The notes beneath the pieces were generated by a model. That model saw only the letters and a list, made by a program, of their open reading frames with translations, had not been told where the DNA came from and did not search any database. From positions 152,896-216,895 of the forward strand of contig JAUSGI010000008.1 in the NCBI GenBank assembly GCA_030649135.1: DNA of 64,000 nucleotides, given 5' to 3'. The position numbers and the translations under genes were made by a program. The first letter of the stretch is position 1. Every line of letters starts with the position of its first letter. This stretch comes from a bacterium (GTDB lineage Bacteria; Patescibacteriota; Minisyncoccia; Phycocordibacterales; Zambryskibacteraceae). Below are positions 27,220 to 59,067 of the stretch, one piece after another.

Positions 27220-27240
27220 TGTCAAAGACCGTCTTTGACA
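27220..27240. repeat. REP-like 21-bp palindrome tgtcaaagaccgtctttgaca (copy 1a)
   Basis: Near-perfect palindrome 11 bp upstream of the RAYT-1 start. Confidence 0.8.
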
Positions 27241-27250
27241 TAATAGGTTC

Positions 27251-27898
27251 ATGGGTAATAGAGACTATAAAAAATTTGCCACTGGAACTATCTTTCATAT
27301 ATACAATAGAGGCAATAACCGAGAAAAAATTTTCCATGATGAGCAGGACTATAAAGCGCTAATATTTAGAATTGGTCTGGCACTAGGATTCGAAGAAAAA
27401 GAACTGTCACATCAATTATGTCACCAACCATATTCAAGAATCAGGATTACAGGCACACATAAAGGAAAATTCAAGCTACACGCTTTTTGTCTTATGCCAA
27501 ATCATTTTCACTTACTTATCGAACAGTGTGAAGATGTGCCTATATCGAAAATTATCTCGAAAATATGTGCAAGTTATGCTAAATATGTAAATAAAAAATA
27601 CAAAAGAGTCGGGCATGTATTTCAGGATAAATTTAAAGCAGTACTTATGGAATCAAATGAACAACTTATGTGGATTTGCACATATATACACATGAATGCA
27701 GTGAAGGACAGTATGGTCAAACATCCAGATGAATATGTATGGAGTAGCTACAATGACTATACAACTGACAGAAATCTGCCAATCATAAATACTGACTTTT
27801 TGATCTCACTATTTGGTGATAAAAATAGTTTCAAAAAAGAGACCCTCCGCCCTTACTCAGATAGCCTGTCAAAGACCGTCTTTGACATTAAGAGTTGA
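27251..27898 (+). CDS. REP-associated tyrosine transposase (RAYT) / IS200-like Y1 HUH transposase, paralog 1
   Basis: YxxxRGN N-terminal motif (FHIYNRGNNREKIF), HUH motif CLMPNHFHLLIE and catalytic Tyr region CTYIHMNAV. AT-rich gene flanked by REP palindromes. Confidence 0.75.
   Translation: MGNRDYKKFATGTIFHIYNRGNNREKIFHDEQDYKALIFRIGLALGFEEKELSHQLCHQPYSRIRITGTHKGKFKLHAFCLMPNHFHLLIEQCEDVPISKIISKICASYAKYVNKKYKRVGHVFQDKFKAVLMESNEQLMWICTYIHMNAVKDSMVKHPDEYVWSSYNDYTTDRNLPIINTDFLISLFGDKNSFKKETLRPYSDSLSKTVFDIKS
27867..27887. repeat. REP-like palindrome tgtcaaagaccgtctttgaca (copy 1b)
   Basis: Identical to copy 1a. Overlaps the last codons of RAYT-1 (KTVFD). Confidence 0.8.
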
Positions 27899-28695: not shown

Positions 28696-28727
28696 AATAT
28701 TTTTTATTTCAGGATAATGTCAAAGAC

Positions 28728-28748
28728 GGTCTTTGACATACACATACA
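28728..28748. repeat. REP-like palindrome tgtcaaagacggtctttgaca (copy 1c, inverted centre)
   Basis: Same arms with centre g instead of c, so opposite orientation. Confidence 0.8.
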
Positions 28749-34362: not shown

Positions 34363-35541
34363 TTGATTTTGATATTATGGACCCCGTTCCTTATTAACCC
34401 CCGCTTTCGTTACCCCCCGCGCTTCGGCAAACACTCTATAAAGCGCGAGGACCGGAAACGGCCCATCAATTTGACTACTAATACTGCAGAAGTTGACGCA
34501 TTTCTAACAAGCATCCCCAATCCCCCTTCCATCGATGACCTCGTGGAAGGTCCTGTCATCAGTATTGATAAAGGCGCGGTCTATGTCGACCTGCCGCCTT
34601 TCGGCACCGGTATCATCTACGGTCGCGAGTTTATAAACGCCCGAGACATTATCAAAAAGATTAACGTCTCCGACATTGTCGCCGGCAAAGTGGTCGGCAT
34701 CGGTGGTAAAGAAGGTTATATCGAAATTTCCCTGAAGGAGGCGCGTCAGGCCCTAATCTGGAGCGAGGCTGAGGAAGCTATTCGCGAGAAACGCATATAC
34801 GAGCTTCCTATCACAGATGCCAACAAGGGTGGTCTCATTATTAACTGGCAAGGCCTCTCCGGTTTCCTGCCTGCTTCCCAACTTAAACCGGAACATTACC
34901 CGCGCATCTCCGACGGAGACAAAGACAAAATTCTTGATGAATTGAAGAAACTGGTTGGGGAAAAACTCTCGGTCACCATTATTGGCGCCAGTCCCAAAGA
35001 AGGCAAACTTATTTTCTCGGAGAAAAGTCCCGAGACCAAAGATAAAGAAAATATTGTGGCCCGTTACACTTTGGGCGACGAAATTGTGGGCGAAGTCACC
35101 GGTCTCGTCGACTTCGGTATTTTCATTAAACTGGAAGAAGGGCTGGAAGGGCTGGTGCACATCTCGGAAATTGATTGGGGTCTTGTAGAAAATCCCAAAA
35201 CCATGTTCAGGATAGGTGAAAAAGTACGTGTGAAGGTTATCGAGATTAAGGATGACAAAATTTCTCTCTCTATTAAAGCCTTGAAAGAAAACCCTTGGCG
35301 AGAAGCGGAAAAGAAATACAAGAAAGACGCCATTGTAGACGGTATCATTATTAAATTCAACAAGTACGGAGCGCTTGCTTCAATTGAGGAGGGTGTGGCG
35401 GGCCTGGTGCATATCTCCGAATTTGGTTCGGAAGAAAAACTGCGCGAGAAACTCGAAATGGGCAAGGTCTACACTTTCAAAATCACCCTCTTCGACCCCA
35501 AAGAGCAAAAGATGGCACTCTCGTTCATCGACAAGAAATAA
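34363..35541 (+). CDS. rpsA: 30S ribosomal protein S1 (multiple S1 domains)
   Basis: Repeated S1 motifs (GxV..I..fGaFV-like: GKVVGIGGKEGYIEIS, GEVTGLVDFGIFIKLEEG, etc.). No in-frame ATG near the conserved start, so probably a non-ATG start. Confidence 0.75.
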   Translation: MILILWTPFLINPRFRYPPRFGKHSIKREDRKRPINLTTNTAEVDAFLTSIPNPPSIDDLVEGPVISIDKGAVYVDLPPFGTGIIYGREFINARDIIKKINVSDIVAGKVVGIGGKEGYIEISLKEARQALIWSEAEEAIREKRIYELPITDANKGGLIINWQGLSGFLPASQLKPEHYPRISDGDKDKILDELKKLVGEKLSVTIIGASPKEGKLIFSEKSPETKDKENIVARYTLGDEIVGEVTGLVDFGIFIKLEEGLEGLVHISEIDWGLVENPKTMFRIGEKVRVKVIEIKDDKISLSIKALKENPWREAEKKYKKDAIVDGIIIKFNKYGALASIEEGVAGLVHISEFGSEEKLREKLEMGKVYTFKITLFDPKEQKMALSFIDKK

Positions 35542-35550
35542 TCCATCCCT

Positions 35551-35575
35551 TTGTCAAACACTGGGTGTTAGACAA
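35551..35575. repeat. REP-like imperfect palindrome ttgtcaaacactgggtgttagacaa (copy 2a)
   Basis: Abuts the RAYT-2 stop codon. Confidence 0.7.
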
Positions 35576-36235
35576 CTATAGGATCTTCAAATAATCTAGC
35601 TCTTCTTCTAGAAGTTTTGCTGGACTTGTCCTAGTAAACTCTTGGTATTTGTCTGGGCCTTTGAATTGACCTAGAACGATTTCTGATAAAAGCAGACTTC
35701 CCCATCGATTTTCTTTTATAAAATCTTGATAGCTTGACCAAGGATATTGGTCTTCTTTCTTAAACCACTTCCCAATCTCTCTCGGGTTTCTATGAATATA
35801 GCTAGACAGATATAAAAGCTGATGATCACCTTCTATATGAACCGCACGATAAGGCCCTTGAAAAACATGTCCAGATTTATCATATCTGGTATTGTAATAT
35901 TTGGCATAAGCATTAAGCACTCTCTGCATATAAGCTGCTATGCCTTCTTCTTCAACTTCTTTGACCAATAAGTGGAAATGGTTTGGCATGATACGGAAAG
36001 AAACAAGCTCAACTGTACGCTTTTTAACAATCTCCTCTGTATTATCTAACACCCGGTGTTTGACGAAATCCTTTACTGACCTACCAACCTGTGGAAAAGT
36101 TACTTCTGATTGGAAGTAAAGAATGAGGAAAAGAAATCTGTTGTAGTCTCCTGTATCATGAAAAATAACTTGTTTGTGTACACCCCTATTACACAAATGA
36201 TAATACTCGTTTGGAGACAACCGTGTTCTTCTCAT
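35576..36235 (-). CDS. REP-associated tyrosine transposase (RAYT)/IS200-like, paralog 2
   Basis: YYHLCNRGVHKQVIF, HUH FRIMPNHFHLLVKE, Tyr motif SYIHRNP. AT-rich. Confidence 0.75.
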   Translation of the reverse strand: MRRTRLSPNEYYHLCNRGVHKQVIFHDTGDYNRFLFLILYFQSEVTFPQVGRSVKDFVKHRVLDNTEEIVKKRTVELVSFRIMPNHFHLLVKEVEEEGIAAYMQRVLNAYAKYYNTRYDKSGHVFQGPYRAVHIEGDHQLLYLSSYIHRNPREIGKWFKKEDQYPWSSYQDFIKENRWGSLLLSEIVLGQFKGPDKYQEFTRTSPAKLLEEELDYLKIL

Positions 36236-36245
36236 ATATTCATTA

Positions 36246-36270
36246 TGTCAAATACCCGGTGTTTGACAAA
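36246..36270. repeat. REP-like imperfect palindrome tgtcaaatacccggtgtttgacaaa (copy 2b)
   Basis: 10 bp upstream of the RAYT-2 start. A degenerate third copy lies inside the gene at 36045-36064. Confidence 0.7.
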
Positions 36271-36287
36271 CTTATATATCCTTAATA

Positions 36288-36842
36288 TTACTTGACCGGA
36301 TGGTCAAGTTGATAAATCTGGGTATCGTAGCCTCTGGTTTCTTCGTCATTTCTGGAAAGTCCCAGAGATTCAAGTTCTTTGAATAATTCTTCCCTGACTT
36401 CCTCTGCGTCGATGTCTTCTTCAGTCAGCTTTTCAAGCTCGATAAATGTCCCAAGTTTTTCCACTTCATCCAGACAAATCTCATACGGTCCGAGTTTGCC
36501 CTTCCGACGCATTTTCTTTACCTCGACTACCGGATACCACCCCAGTAGCTCAAGCATATGGTGGACTTGTTTCGGATCTGCCACTTCTGTCTCGCACTCA
36601 ATATTGTCGCTCTCGTTGGAACGCTGCTGTTTGAGGGTAAGCTCAGCAGAATCCTTCAAGTAGCGGATGCGAATAACAATATCTCCCTCCTGTGCCGATT
36701 GGAATTCATTCCTCGAACCCTTGAGAGAATAGACAACATCATGCTGGCTTATCGGTTCTGAAAGAACGCAGCCTTTCTCTTTGAGCTTTTGCTCAATTTC
36801 TTCCAGATTCTTCGCTTTCAGCTTTACTTCTATTTCTCTCAT
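36288..36842 (-). CDS. CYTH-domain protein (class IV adenylate cyclase / triphosphatase-like)
   Basis: N-terminal MREIEVKLKA (ExExK motif) and acidic C-terminal strands. Confidence 0.65.
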   Translation of the reverse strand: MREIEVKLKAKNLEEIEQKLKEKGCVLSEPISQHDVVYSLKGSRNEFQSAQEGDIVIRIRYLKDSAELTLKQQRSNESDNIECETEVADPKQVHHMLELLGWYPVVEVKKMRRKGKLGPYEICLDEVEKLGTFIELEKLTEEDIDAEEVREELFKELESLGLSRNDEETRGYDTQIYQLDHPVK

Positions 36843-36846
36843 GCAG

Positions 36847-37374
36847 TTATTTATTAAATTCCGTCATGGCGCGAGTGAGGCCGTGTTCGACGATAGCTTC
36901 AACCGCTCCTTGTGCGCGTTTGAACACTTTTTTCAAAATCTCTGTTTCAGATTTTTTAAATTCTCCCAAAATATGCTTTTCTACTGCTGCCTCCCCTTTC
37001 GGCTTTTTGATTTTGCCGGAAGGAGTAACCGGTGAAATGCCAATGCGAATACGAATAAACCCTTCAGTCTTGAGAGCGCGGATAACTGACTCTAATCCCC
37101 TGTGCCCGCCCGAAGAACGATTATAAGAAACTTTCAGCGTACCTATGGGTAAATCCAAATCATCATAAATCACGATTAATTTCTCCGCCGCCTTTTTGTT
37201 TTTGACTACCTTGGCGACACCACTTCCCGATTTATTCATAAAGGTATCAAGATGTACCAACTTTATTCCCGTTAATTCTTTTTTTGTCAAATACTCCAGT
37301 GTCAAGCGACCGGTGTTGTGCCGGGTGCGCGCATACTGGTCGCCGGGATTACCTAAACCCACGATGATATACAT
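36847..37374 (-). CDS. pth: Peptidyl-tRNA hydrolase
   Basis: MYIIVGLGNPGDQYARTRHN. Confidence 0.9.
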   Translation of the reverse strand: MYIIVGLGNPGDQYARTRHNTGRLTLEYLTKKELTGIKLVHLDTFMNKSGSGVAKVVKNKKAAEKLIVIYDDLDLPIGTLKVSYNRSSGGHRGLESVIRALKTEGFIRIRIGISPVTPSGKIKKPKGEAAVEKHILGEFKKSETEILKKVFKRAQGAVEAIVEHGLTRAMTEFNK

Positions 37375-52064: not shown

Positions 52065-53891
52065 CTAACCACGGCGAATCATCTTGAGAAAAACGTCTTG
52101 GGAAATATTTACTTTCCCGCGCTCCCGCATCTTCTTCTTGCCCTTCTTTTGTTTCTCCCGGAGCTTCATTTTGCGGGTAATATCACCGCCATACATATGC
52201 TGGGTGACATCCTTCTTCATGCCGCTAAGGGTCCGTGAGGCAATAATGCGACCAAGAGCCTTGGCCTGAATCTTCAGCGTAAACATCTGCCTAGGCAAGG
52301 CAGCGGCCAGTTTATCCACATCCGATTCAGACTCTGTCTCAACTTGTCTGCGGGATATTACTTTGGCAAAGGCCGGCACCACTTCATCGGCTATCAAAAT
52401 ATCCAGACGAGTAACGTCCGCCAGTCTTTCACCGGCTAGCGAGTAAGAGATGGAGCCAAAACCGGATGTCGCGCTTTTAAGCTTATCGAAGAAACCTCTC
52501 ATCAGTTCCCGGAGGGGCATTTCAAAAGAGAGTGAGGCGCGCGCCTCACCGAAATTTTCCGTCTCCCCAAGCTCTGCCTCAAACTCATAAAGAAGCTGAA
52601 CCACCGGACTGATAAATGCGGGCGGCACAATGACCGTAGCTTTCACCCACGGTTCCCACACCGAACTTACGAGATGGTCTTCAGGAAAAAATGATGGGGT
52701 ATAAACTTGCCCCTCACTGCCATTTTTGTATACGATTCTATACGTGATACTCGGCAAAGTGATGACCAGGGGCAGATTAAATTCACGTCTCAATCTTTCG
52801 GTGATAATCTCCAGATGAAGCATGCCGAGAAAACCGGCGCGGAAACCCCTACCAAGCACGCTGGAGGATTCTTCTTCGAAAGAGAATGCCGAGTCGGATA
52901 GACGTAGTCGGGAAAGGGCCTGTTTCAAAGCGGTGAAGTGGTCTTGATTCTCCGGGTAAATAGAAGCCCAAACTACAGGAAAGGGCTTCGCATAGCCAGC
53001 CAAGGCGGGACTACCGTCGGTGCTCGCGGTAATCGTATCGCCAACAGAAGCGATTCCGGGCTCCTTGATGCCTGTGACAATGTAACCTATTTCCCCCGAT
53101 ACCAGTTCCGATACCTTCTTCTCCTCCGGGGTAAACACACCAACTTCTAGAGACTGAAACTCTTTGTCCGCCACTTTGAACCTTAACTTATCACCCGACT
53201 TCACAGACCCGCTAAAAACACGCACAAAGACAATAACCCCTCGGTGATTGGAATACTGGAAATCAAAAACCAGACTTCTGAACCCCCCCGAGGAAAGACC
53301 TAGGGGAATTCCCCTAGGTCTTTCCTCGGGGAATTGCGGAGAGTCGTGACTGGAGCTGGGCGGCGGTACACGTTTAATGATTTCGTCCAAAAGATTTAAT
53401 ACACCTTCCCCTGTTTTACCGGAAACAAGTAAGACCTCGTTACTATCTATGTGTAAAAGTTTGGAAATCTCTTCCTTGACTTCCGCCACCCGCGCCAGAG
53501 GAGAATCAATTTTGGAAATAACGGGAATAATTTTGAGTTGAGCGACCTCGGCCATCCCTAGCGTCGTTAAGGTTTGAGCTTGCACCCCCTGCGTGGCATC
53601 CACCAGAAGTATCGAACCCTCCACGGCACCGAGAGCGCGCGACACTTCGTAAGAAAAATCGATATGGCCGGGAGTATCTATCAAATTTAAAATATACTCC
53701 CCATATTTCATCCGCACCGGTTGCATCTTTATGGTAATTCCCCGCTCACGTTCAAGCTCCATGGAGTCGAGTACTTGCTCGCGCATGTCCCGCTTGGCTA
53801 TCGTGCCGGTCAACTCAAGCATCCTGTCCGCCAAAGTAGATTTGCCGTGGTCAATATGCGCTATGATGCTGAAATTACGAATCTTATCCAT
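52065..53891 (-). CDS. lepA: Elongation factor 4 (LepA)
   Basis: FSIIAHIDHGKSTLADR G-domain. LepA-specific C-terminal domain ...GGDITRKMKLREKQKKGKK. Confidence 0.9.
   Translation of the reverse strand: MDKIRNFSIIAHIDHGKSTLADRMLELTGTIAKRDMREQVLDSMELERERGITIKMQPVRMKYGEYILNLIDTPGHIDFSYEVSRALGAVEGSILLVDATQGVQAQTLTTLGMAEVAQLKIIPVISKIDSPLARVAEVKEEISKLLHIDSNEVLLVSGKTGEGVLNLLDEIIKRVPPPSSSHDSPQFPEERPRGIPLGLSSGGFRSLVFDFQYSNHRGVIVFVRVFSGSVKSGDKLRFKVADKEFQSLEVGVFTPEEKKVSELVSGEIGYIVTGIKEPGIASVGDTITASTDGSPALAGYAKPFPVVWASIYPENQDHFTALKQALSRLRLSDSAFSFEEESSSVLGRGFRAGFLGMLHLEIITERLRREFNLPLVITLPSITYRIVYKNGSEGQVYTPSFFPEDHLVSSVWEPWVKATVIVPPAFISPVVQLLYEFEAELGETENFGEARASLSFEMPLRELMRGFFDKLKSATSGFGSISYSLAGERLADVTRLDILIADEVVPAFAKVISRRQVETESESDVDKLAAALPRQMFTLKIQAKALGRIIASRTLSGMKKDVTQHMYGGDITRKMKLREKQKKGKKKMRERGKVNISQDVFLKMIRRG
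53286..53331. repeat. Perfect 46-bp palindrome inside lepA, in frame (ccccgaggaaagacctaggggaattcccctaggtctttcctcgggg)
   Basis: The sequence is its own reverse complement. Encodes PEERPRGIPLGLSSGG in the lepA frame. Related to the dnaE element. Confidence 0.85.
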
Positions 53892-53908
53892 AATGATTCC
53901 AGGCAACC

Positions 53909-58340: not shown

Positions 58341-58362
58341 GACGAGGAAAGACCTCGTGGCG
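58341..58362. repeat. REP-like hairpin gacgaggaaagacctcgtggcg (copy 3a)
   Basis: 19-nt core CCACGAGGTCTTTCCTCGT (reverse complement) identical to copy 3b. Preceded by a separate 13-bp hairpin (58308-58338) at the rnpB 3' end. Confidence 0.75.
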
Positions 58363-58381
58363 TGGTACTATAAACAACATA

Positions 58382-59044
58382 ATGGGAGCAAGGCAAGGAA
58401 GTTTCGCTGCGGGAGAATACTACCACTTATACAATCGCGGTAATAGTAAACAGAAAATTTTTCACAGCAAACACGATTATGAGCGTTTTTTAAAGTTGCT
58501 ATATATTGCAAACTCTTCAGAAAAATTCCACTTCTCCGACATTCAAAATCCATACGAGATAGAAAGGTCTGCCCGACTGGTATCAATAGGAGCGTATTGC
58601 TTGATGCCAAATCATTTTCATCTACTGATGACGCCTGTGAACGACAAAGAAGCTGGGGTAAGTAAATTTATGAAAAAATTAGGCACTGCTTATGCTATGT
58701 ATTTCAATACAAGGTACGAGAGAGTGGGAAGCCTTTTCGAGGGAAAATTTAGATCAGAACATCTTGACTCAGACCGTTATCTCAAATATATATTTTCTTA
58801 TGTACATCTTAATCCTATAAAGATTATGGATAACAAATGGAGGGAACTTGGTATTAAGGACAAAAACAAAGCCTGGCGATTCCTCAATGGATACAAATAC
58901 TCAAGTTTTTATGATTACCAGGATAAACACAGGGAGGAAGAGAAAATTTTGAACAAAGAAAATTTTCCTGGCTACTTTCCCTCTGCACATAAGTTTAAGG
59001 AAGAAATATTTGATTGGCTAAACTTCAGCAACCGAAAGCAATAA
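58382..59044 (+). CDS. REP-associated tyrosine transposase (RAYT)/IS200-like, paralog 3
   Basis: YYHLYNRGNSKQKIF, HUH CLMPNHFHLLMT, Tyr motif SYVHLNPIK. AT-rich. Confidence 0.75.
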   Translation: MGARQGSFAAGEYYHLYNRGNSKQKIFHSKHDYERFLKLLYIANSSEKFHFSDIQNPYEIERSARLVSIGAYCLMPNHFHLLMTPVNDKEAGVSKFMKKLGTAYAMYFNTRYERVGSLFEGKFRSEHLDSDRYLKYIFSYVHLNPIKIMDNKWRELGIKDKNKAWRFLNGYKYSSFYDYQDKHREEEKILNKENFPGYFPSAHKFKEEIFDWLNFSNRKQ

Positions 59045-59067
59045 CCACGAGGTCTTTCCTCGTGGTT
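59043..59067. repeat. REP-like hairpin aaccacgaggtctttcctcgtggtt (copy 3b)
   Basis: 10-bp stem with a 5-nt loop. Inverted relative to copy 3a. Confidence 0.75.

Follow-up and report, generated by a model that had tools for sequence, protein, structure and literature searches.

What does a palindrome do in a gene that carries it at both ends and once more within its own reading frame? The question is raised by gene B, the main subject of this study, a Y1/HUH gene in a 64,000-nt stretch of a Patescibacteria genome; the whole of this stretch is referred to as the window. Tyrosine transposases associated with repetitive extragenic palindromic (REP) sequences, termed RAYTs, are widespread, and both their function and their co-evolution with the repeats are unsettled. 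The palindromes of gene B could be the ends of an insertion sequence, the operators of a repressor, or hairpins recognized by the encoded enzyme. The explanation favored here, with a probability of roughly 0.6, is that the product of gene B is a nuclease-transferase of the RAYT kind, a class-2 Y1/HUH enzyme acting on single-strand DNA, and that its one specific target, a 23-nt palindrome, is built into its own gene in three copies. The three-copy layout is kept in a Parcubacteria clade, with the copies changing together, and two residues of the protein covary with two base pairs of the palindrome stem.

Three Copies of One Palindrome

The unit consists of one gene and three palindromes, denoted UP, INT, and DOWN:

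35576..36235, minus strand: RAYT-like Y1/HUH gene B, 219 aa plus stop, 37% guanine-plus-cytosine (GC) content, the sole long open reading frame (ORF) between the outer palindromes
36246..36270, minus strand: UP palindrome, TTTGTCAAACACCGGGTATTTGACA on the coding strand, with 10-bp arms (one C-A mismatch) around a 3-nt loop; 10 nt separate it from the ATG, and its position is orthologous in 61 loci
36043..36065, minus strand: INT palindrome, CGTCAAACACCGGGTGTTAGATA on the coding strand, in the reading frame at codons 57–64, with 2 arm mismatches and 1 G-T pair
35551..35575, minus strand: DOWN palindrome, TTGTCTAACACCCAGTGTTTGACAA on the coding strand, directly at the stop codon of gene B (0 nt), with 9 nt between it and the stop of the convergent S1 gene

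The ATG of gene B is at 36233–36235. The initial annotation of this locus had described an AT-rich gene with palindromes 0 and 10 nt from its ends, and both outer copies are found as placed; the GC content of the gene is 37% versus 47% for the window. A weaker internal copy had also been proposed, and it is present, with a span of 36043–36065 instead of 36045–36064. When the idealized palindrome TGTCAAACACCGGGTGTTTGACA was searched over the 64 kb with up to 3 mismatches, only 35552–35574, 36043–36065, and 36246–36268 matched, where shuffled sequences give an expectation of 0.00. The palindromes had been expected to be enriched near the RAYT gene rather than spread at random, and within the 64 kb the B copies are indeed at gene B only. 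No T-run was found 3′ of DOWN, and a terminator role for this copy was dropped.

Conservation of the Layout

The layout was followed in 80 ortholog loci from species-representative genomes, where the best upstream hairpin of each locus was identified and then its matches elsewhere. An upstream hairpin is present in 61 loci, and 49 of the 61 have all three copies; the three perfect copies of one ortholog (L002) were confirmed with a separate tool. Across the orthologs, UP ends 8–31 nt before the ATG and DOWN lies 0–20 nt past the stop or over the last codons. Copies of the same locus differ little from each other. Of 20 stem positions, the difference is 0.84 for UP–INT, 0.55 for UP–DOWN, and 0.63 for INT–DOWN, compared with 5.2 between loci (permutation p ≤ 1e-4), and 31 distinct stem variants occur. 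The loops can be oriented either way, and all eight combinations of orientation over the three copies are seen.

INT is paired as well as the extragenic copies. Its helix is 96.5% paired over 49 sequences, with changes on both sides at 8 of the 10 pairs, while slid controls are 28–46% paired. Because the pairing is kept through compensatory changes, the peptide encoded by INT is dictated by the palindrome. In gene B the peptide is VKHRVLD (V58-K-H-R-V-L-D64), located in an insert of two helices that separates helix A from the HUH strand. Among orthologs, the palindrome links K to F, Q to L, and V to D, N, or H, and a flip of the loop (CGA or TCG) switches the middle residue between R and S. 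In a neighbor-joining tree, INT is found throughout one large clade and is missing in basal lineages and in one small inner clade.

Does INT have a role of its own, or is it a passenger? An old in-frame insertion of a mobile palindrome in a tolerant surface insert, kept similar to UP and DOWN by templated correction or gene conversion, is somewhat unlikely for this copy. Such insertions are evidently tolerated, since the same palindrome stands in-frame in ligA, pheT, truB, tsaD, and other genes, always in a stop-free frame, and subclass 2.4 has known cases of REPs within tnpA_REP genes (PMC6006769). The dictated peptide with its R/S flips, the absence of INT from some lineages, and the state of INT in the window, where it is the most decayed of the three copies, also fit a passenger. 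Against this, INT holds a fixed codon position (nt 165–192, mostly 171) in 49 species at 50–75% protein identity, its pairing equals that of the extragenic copies (24 of 49 INT are perfect), it tracks the 31 stem variants, and identities of 23 bp are short for ordinary homologous recombination. The fixed position, pairing, and tracking together require either selection or a homogenizing process linked to the enzyme. The internal copy, initially described as weaker and degenerate, is a conserved and covarying part of the architecture across a whole clade and not a chance relic.

Some further features of the palindromes were observed alongside the layout. The 23-nt core is enclosed in a longer, locus-specific palindrome with at least 3 extra complementary bp in 23–28% of UP, DOWN, and solo copies and in 4% of INT, where about 2% is expected. 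Extra half-arms in tandem, with a period of ~11 nt, stand beside UP or DOWN in L015, L033, L042, L025, L006, and L038. Sixteen of 20 half-sites are at most 150 nt from the gene, and one 11-nt half-arm duplication is polymorphic among near-identical strains (L093–L100 versus L092/L101). Coding-strand stem mismatches in the 49 loci are G-T versus A-C at 31 versus 14 in the transcribed INT and DOWN and at 8 versus 10 in the untranscribed UP. The G-T excess in transcribed copies may reflect mRNA pairing or a mutation bias (transcription-linked C-to-T) and is not used as evidence.

The Enzyme

The predicted catalytic residues of the gene B protein are encoded at two sites:

35972..35980, minus strand: codons of the HUH motif, H86-F87-H88, invariant and aligned to H59/H61 of 4ER8
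35798..35800, minus strand: codon of Tyr146, predicted to be catalytic, within YIHRNP, which bears the class-2 Y---NP signature

None of the 122 sequences compared departs from the HUH motif, in the context NHFHL, or from the tyrosine of YIHRNP. In the scheme of Quentin et al. 2018 (PMC6006769), Y---NP marks class 2, the RAYT type. The protein matches Pfam Y1_Tnp (PF01797) with E = 2.4e-11 and 44 bits against a cut-off of 23. An AlphaFold2 model built from the 122-sequence alignment has a pLDDT (the per-residue confidence score of the program) of 89.7; an earlier model from 20 sequences was discarded at 41. With Foldseek, the best match of the model in the PDB is 4ER8_A (E = 5.6e-6, TM-score 0.68 on the target), which is E. 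coli TnpA_REP in complex with a REP hairpin; the transposases of ISDra2 and IS608 come next. When the PDB was searched by sequence, a 20-sequence profile gave no match at E ≤ 0.01 and the 122-sequence profile gave weak matches only. Compared with 4ER8, ISDra2, and IS608, the model has two additions, a helical tail and an insert of two helices (about residues 43–73) placed between helix A and the HUH strand. No helix-turn-helix (HTH) family was found in the protein at E ≤ 0.01 in Pfam, and Rfam gave no family match over 35000–37000 even at E ≤ 1.

More than 1100 homologs exist. The best 120 clusters are 62–76% identical to the gene B protein, apart from the identical P0001, and those with a named source come from metagenome-assembled genomes (MAGs) of Parcubacteria, Paceibacterota, Zambryskibacteria, or other Patescibacteria. 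The designation RAYT/IS200-like needs to be divided: the gene is a Y1/HUH gene of the RAYT kind, as indicated by Pfam Y1_Tnp and the 4ER8 match, and it is a single-copy resident, not an insertion sequence of the IS200 type.

Covariation of Enzyme and Palindrome

Protein residues were compared with stem positions in a mutual-information screen and in follow-up tables, from which two candidate readers of the palindrome emerged:

35912..35914, minus strand: Asn108 codon, candidate reader of stem pair 9:15; N with A-T, T with G-C, D with C-G
36089..36091, minus strand: Gln49 codon, candidate reader of stem pair 4:20; Q with C-G, N or H otherwise

Residue 108 is in the motif QRVL[N/T]AY on the helix that follows the HUH strand. 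It is T with G9 in 10 loci and non-T with non-G9 in 50, without exception, and about 7 independent changes are counted on a tree built without residues 44–72 and 108. In a further clade, D108 accompanies C9. Residue 49 is in the motif F-x-[Q/N]-[IV]-G-R of the insert; where stem position 4 is C, the residue is Q in 20 of 23 loci, and none of the other 37 loci has Q. About 9 changes are counted for it. Fisher p values for these rules ignore phylogeny. Both rules hold in lineages that have no INT, which means that they are not merely compensation for residues encoded by INT. In an independent set of metagenome genes, the rule for residue 108 is kept in 16 of 18 (N). Residues 48, 53, 5, 158, and 20 were also considered as candidates and were dropped for want of a clean rule.

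In a HMMER alignment to 4ER8, which is weak (E = 0.012) though anchored on the HUH and Y motifs, residue 108 falls on K82 of TnpA_REP. K82 makes a critical base-specific contact and lies on helix αC, which is inserted in the groove of the REP hairpin (Messing et al. 2012, PMC3479197). The initial annotation had supposed that each enzyme recognizes its own hairpin. Covariation of two protein residues with two stem base pairs supports such recognition, as judged from sequence, and the pairings at residues 108 and 49 are the strongest support for it.

A Predicted Promoter at the Upstream Copy

UP overlaps the best promoter match of the region:

36242..36269, minus strand: predicted sigma-70-type promoter, TTGTCA-16 nt-(TG)CATAAT, with 10 of 12 consensus matches

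Here and in the orthologs, promoters are predictions from consensus matches. The left arm of UP is the predicted −35 box of gene B, and only 6 nt lie between the −10 box and the ATG, a spacing that implies a leaderless mRNA and recurs in orthologs. A TATAAT box (at least 5 of 6) ending 4–10 nt before the ATG is found in 46 of 61 loci versus 15 of 227 control positions, and in 27 loci the distance is exactly 6 nt. Of those 46 loci, 36 have an arm of UP on the upstream side of the −10 box, at a distance of 16–18 nt, in two arrangements. The hairpin abuts the −10 box in 12 loci, with the left arm as −35 box and a 16–18-nt spacer; in 24 loci the hairpin is 15–18 nt upstream of the −10 box and provides the −35 box with its right arm (TTGACA or TTGAAC). 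By its sequence, then, the UP copy supplies the −35 box of a predicted leaderless promoter.

Residency, Dispersal, Gain, and Loss

If the unit were an autonomous IS200-like insertion sequence, its outer palindromes would be the left and right ends, and it would move by single-strand "peel and paste". Its size and content resemble such an element: ~720 bp, one Y1 gene, and subterminal hairpins, filling the gap between convergent genes. The Y1 gene is also lower in GC than its flanks, by about 8%, in 74 of 74 ortholog loci (35.0% versus 43.3%; r = 0.81). The behavior of the gene is that of a resident. Two proteins, each found in identical form on 23 contigs, have a single genomic context each, and no case of recent transposition (identical proteins in different contexts) was found. 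The neighbors pth and S26 peptidase are common to 13 species, among which the RAYT is 63% identical and the neighbors are 59–66% identical. Gene B is thus a single-copy resident gene, partly (locally) syntenic, that evolves like its neighbors. No near-identical copies occur in any genome or window examined, and the paralogs are 30–38% identical.

Gain and loss are seen at the site itself. In L204 (Ga0209542_10032750), which is syntenic with the window at 74–81% nucleotide identity, the gap between pth and S1 is only 63 nt (compare 35541–36846 of the window). It holds, at 5088–5126, one perfect B-type hairpin together with an additional loop and right arm; the distance to the S1 stop is 8 nt, and the place is that of DOWN in the window. 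The solo hairpin at this empty site indicates that the hairpin marks the site where the cassette, here together with a CYTH gene, is present or absent. A second case is the pair L092 and L093 (~3893–4710), where ~810 bp from the infB start codon to the end of DOWN are ~99.6% identical and the flanks 82–86%. The right boundary of the high-identity stretch is exactly the DOWN hairpin, and L101 is a recombinant of both backgrounds. The cassette of L092/L093 is the product of a recent exchange or sweep.

Both the presence/absence polymorphism at the pth–S1 site and the contrast between cassette and flanks could be read in favor of an insertion sequence. Opposed to that reading, in addition to the residency described above, are the tyrosine motif, which is Y---NP (class 2) and not the Y---Q of IS200 transposases; the ends, where the same perfect palindrome is found on both sides with freely flipping loops instead of distinct imperfect ends with guides; and the spread of solo hairpins without the gene. 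Copy number, motif, and end structure all contradict an autonomous IS200-type element, a reading that we consider highly improbable.

Beside the cassette in the window, a CYTH-domain gene (36288–36842, minus strand) lies between pth and the cassette, as it does in L001 and L198. An unrelated 132-aa gene takes its position in the P0026 loci. The CYTH gene is absent in L204 and several orthologs, and in those orthologs the cassette directly adjoins pth. L204 carries another Y1 paralog across S1, at 6364–7005, with a different palindrome, GGTGTCAACCTGCCAGGTTGACACC.

Dispersed copies were sought in metagenomes with one exact variant, TGTCAAACACNNNGTGTTTGACA, and at least 120 loci were found. A copy was called solo when it had at least 800 nt on both sides and no nearby Y1 gene. 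Among the matches listed, 34 copies are at Y1 genes, 55 are solo, and 60 are too close to a contig end; of the solo copies, 32 are intergenic and 23 are in long ORFs. Those in ORFs stand in-frame in genes that include ligA, a GT4 glycosyltransferase, mnmA, pheT, truB, pyrF, ksgA, and tsaD, and use just two stop-free frames, VKH[RS]VFD 13 times and SNT[EG]CLT 5 times. No guide or cleavage motif is conserved at any flanking position of 52 oriented solo copies.

Loci with hairpins embedded in ORFs include L119, L120, L122, L129, L137, L156, L157, L167, and L215. The hairpin is at a matching protein position in different organisms in tsaD (L157, L167) and in GT4 (L120, L215). Several contigs, among them those of the metagenome loci L154, L163, and L173, begin or end within a few bases of a hairpin, which would follow if assemblies break at the repeat.

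A Proposed Mechanism

The enzyme is proposed to recognize one specific palindrome of 23 nt, with 10-bp arms and a 3-nt center, three copies of which lie within its own gene. The palindrome would be bound as an extruded hairpin via helix αC, as in E. coli TnpA_REP, and the family-specific insert probably takes part in its recognition. By nicking and rejoining DNA at the palindrome, the enzyme could spread solo copies. Occupancy or extrusion of UP may shut the promoter of the gene, resulting in autoregulation, while DOWN may bound the transcript. The hairpins may also mark where the cassette is gained or lost.

A different reading needs no DNA breakage. The palindromes could be regulatory sites in duplex DNA, an operator and promoter upstream and a transcript end downstream, bound by a repressor dimer, with the dispersed copies as promoter- or terminator-like modules. 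Perfect dyad symmetry, TTGACA in an arm, and the −35 position of UP agree with this, as do half-arms with an 11-nt period, which resemble iterons, and the lack of a conserved flanking cleavage or guide motif. Arm covariation fits this reading too, since it does not separate a hairpin from a dyad operator. The catalytic residues speak for enzymatic action, for HUH and Tyr are invariant in 122 sequences and would be needless in a pure repressor. Covarying residue 108 is aligned to the hairpin-reading residue of TnpA_REP. In addition, 23 of the 55 listed solo copies are in-frame in housekeeping ORFs, a setting in which promoters or terminators would do harm, and free loop flips and nested longer palindromes point to processing at the level of DNA. 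Duplex operators are accordingly judged quite unlikely, if less so than an insertion sequence.

Several points weigh against the RAYT-kind explanation and limit its probability. The binding, cleavage, and repression attributed to the gene B protein are inferred. The same arm covariation would be expected of a duplex operator with dyad symmetry to which a dimer binds, and tandem half-arms with an 11-nt period fit recognition of half-sites in duplex DNA. The gene B protein scores 37.1 bits with NCBIfam REP_Tyr_transpos (NF047646), under the cut-off of 80, and the alignment that places residue 108 on K82 is weak. Canonical REPs have a GT[AG]G (or CGTC) 5′ foot beside an imperfect hairpin (PMC6006769, PMC3479197); unlike the REPs of E. 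coli TnpA_REP, the gene B palindromes have neither the 5′ GT[AG]G foot nor the stem bulge that TnpA_REP needs. Dispersal is sparse, with about 10 solo B-type copies in 0.97 Mb of the 80 reference loci and, in a search with up to 3 mismatches, none in the 64-kb window, and the metagenome scan used a single exact variant, so that its counts carry an ascertainment effect. The trees are neighbor-joining trees on MAG-derived sequences and are approximate. In the window, the B system may be quiescent, given the private mutations in all three copies, the absence of a solo copy in 64 kb, and the weak folding of the three copies as single-stranded DNA (−4.4, −2.8, and −7.0 kcal/mol).

An extension of the RAYT-kind explanation is that the three hairpins make the gene a self-recognizing, self-limiting, homing cassette, in which solo hairpins already resident at orthologous sites are the substrate of the enzyme and the gene is copied in beside them. 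Homing would explain the lone cognate hairpin at the empty pth–S1 site of L204, the ~99.6% identical cassette within 82–86% identical flanks and its boundary exactly at DOWN, and the concerted change of all copies. We regard this extension as speculative and, on balance, unlikely. If it is true, residues 49 and 108 would constitute a code, simple and evolvable, by which Y1/HUH enzymes read the base pairs of hairpins.

Paralogs A and C and Their Palindromes

A phmmer search of all ORFs of the window identified paralogs A (27251–27898, plus strand), B (35576–36235, minus strand), and C (58382–59044, plus strand), with 30–38% identity and GC contents of 34–37% versus 47% for the window. The palindrome of paralog A (the 27220 family), TGTCAAAGAC-N-GTCTTTGACA, has three copies. 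As had been noticed initially, the arms of the B family are related to the 27220 family and distinct from it: the TGTCAAA foot is common to both, and the stem top and loop length differ. The further claim that each RAYT paralog has its own REP variant is borne out by the three paralogs of the window and by four pairs of paralogs elsewhere that share a MAG and carry different palindromes (L004/L016, L008/L038, L047/L048, and L026/L078).

The copies of paralog A are at 27220–27240, 10 nt before the ATG, and at 27867–27887, within the last codons (LSKTVFDIKS*), both with center C; the third, at 28718–28738, is intergenic, ~820 nt downstream of A, with center G. A pattern search with up to 3 mismatches found no internal palindrome in paralog A; paralog C was checked for an internal copy solely by a 2-mismatch core search. 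Paralog C is flanked by ACGAGG-AAAGA-CCTCGT and CCACGAGG-TCTTT-CCTCGTGG, at 58341–58360 and 59045–59066, with loops that are reverse-complementary to each other. This inverted arrangement is that of a classical REPtron. Two perfect palindromes of 46 nt (8217–8262 and 53286–53331) are doublets of the paralog C hairpin and stand in-frame in dnaE and lepA. The doublet in dnaE (ORF 5179–9006, plus strand) encodes the peptide VPLGKTSGYPEVFPRG, and that in lepA (ORF 52065–53906, minus strand) encodes FPEERPRGIPLGLSSG.

Significance

The family is a compact natural data set, with dozens of enzyme–hairpin pairs and 31 stem variants. Given that two protein positions switch with two base pairs and that one of these positions is equivalent to K82, swaps of specificity are directly testable and could help engineer sequence-specific HUH tags. 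The ultra-small genomes of Patescibacteria carry RAYT-type systems with palindromes in promoters and in-frame in essential genes (dnaE, lepA), which bears on annotation, on assembly breaks, and on the tolerance of mobile DNA by reduced genomes.

Comparison with Known Systems

The closest systems are E. coli TnpA_REP (RayT/YafM) with its REPs and bacterial interspersed mosaic elements (BIMEs) and the Pseudomonas RAYTs with their REP doublets (REPINs), collectively REPtrons. Like these, gene B is a single-copy Y1/HUH gene flanked by cognate palindromes, with a repeat family of its own for each paralog. The class-2 Y---NP motif, 4ER8 as best structural match, residue 108 at K82, and vertical, housekeeping-like evolution are further likenesses. 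Unlike the REPtrons, the gene B protein misses the NCBIfam equivalog cut-off and has 219 aa with a two-helix insert and a helical tail, and the repeat is low-copy in most genomes, with one copy in a promoter and another in a reading frame. The repeat is a perfect 23-mer with perfect stems, in contrast to a canonical REP, and B-type copies are mostly single, unlike the main form of REPINs; the C-type family of the window does form 46-nt doublets. The palindromes, initially termed REP, are not canonical REPs: they lack the GTAG foot, are perfect 23-mers, and, for the B type, are dispersed in other genomes only and not in the window. The host phylum here is Patescibacteria, and literature searches found nothing specific on RAYTs or REPs in the candidate phyla radiation or Parcubacteria.

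Two other subclasses of TnpA_Y1 share part of the picture. In subclass 2.4 (Bertels group 4; Quentin et al. 2018, PMC6006769), REPs also occur in the gene, with the frame kept, in a peripheral region of the protein. Gene B differs in that one copy is at a fixed codon (residues 58–64) before the HuH motif (86–88), clade-wide, and covaries with the flanking copies; its motif is FQ versus WQ, and the hosts of subclass 2.4 are Cyanobacteria and Bacteroidetes. Subclass 2.1, or TIRYT (Di Nocera 2013; Quentin 2018), has NH[YF]H, FQ, Y[IV]H-NP, a W-SS C-terminal tail, and more than 200 aa in common with gene B, and some TIRYT repeats are self-complementary, as the gene B palindrome is. Subclass 2.1 is reported to have no REP-like hairpins, terminal repeats of GGGG[AT][CG]A[CG], and an HTH/DnaA_C-like tail, none of which is seen for gene B, whose repeat is TGTnnAACAC...GTGTTnnACA.

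With the IS200/IS605 TnpA proteins (IS608, ISDra2), gene B shares the fold, the catalytic motifs, a compact element of ~700 bp, and, by analogy, probably a hairpin-recognizing chemistry on single-strand DNA. Y---Q, an obligate dimer, distinct imperfect ends with guide tetranucleotides, and multicopy identical elements are features of IS200/IS605 that were not found here. In-frame palindromes in housekeeping genes, often of replication or repair, are known as intragenic REPs and as Rickettsia palindromic elements (PMC3733652), and those in dnaE and lepA of the window and in ligA, pheT, truB, tsaD, and others in metagenomes are similar. The present unit, at 23 nt or, as a doublet, 46 nt, is much shorter and is tied to a cognate Y1 gene with covariation of residue and base. 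HUH initiators with the target in their own gene, such as those of the phiX174 gene A origin and the pT181 RepC origin, likewise inherit and evolve enzyme and site together. Their sites are replication origins of a phage and a plasmid, acted on by a Rep-type enzyme, whereas gene B is chromosomal and of the Y1-transposase type, with no replication role indicated.

The gene B system is therefore RAYT/REPtron-like and departs from canonical REP/RAYT systems in the GTAG foot, the bulge, and the equivalog score; it also falls outside IS200, TIRYT/subclass 2.1, and subclass 2.4. Paralog-specific cognate palindromes are standard RAYT biology. What is new is the conserved triple of a perfect 23-nt palindrome, embedded in the promoter, in-frame in the gene, and abutting the stop, together with a two-position read-out rule.

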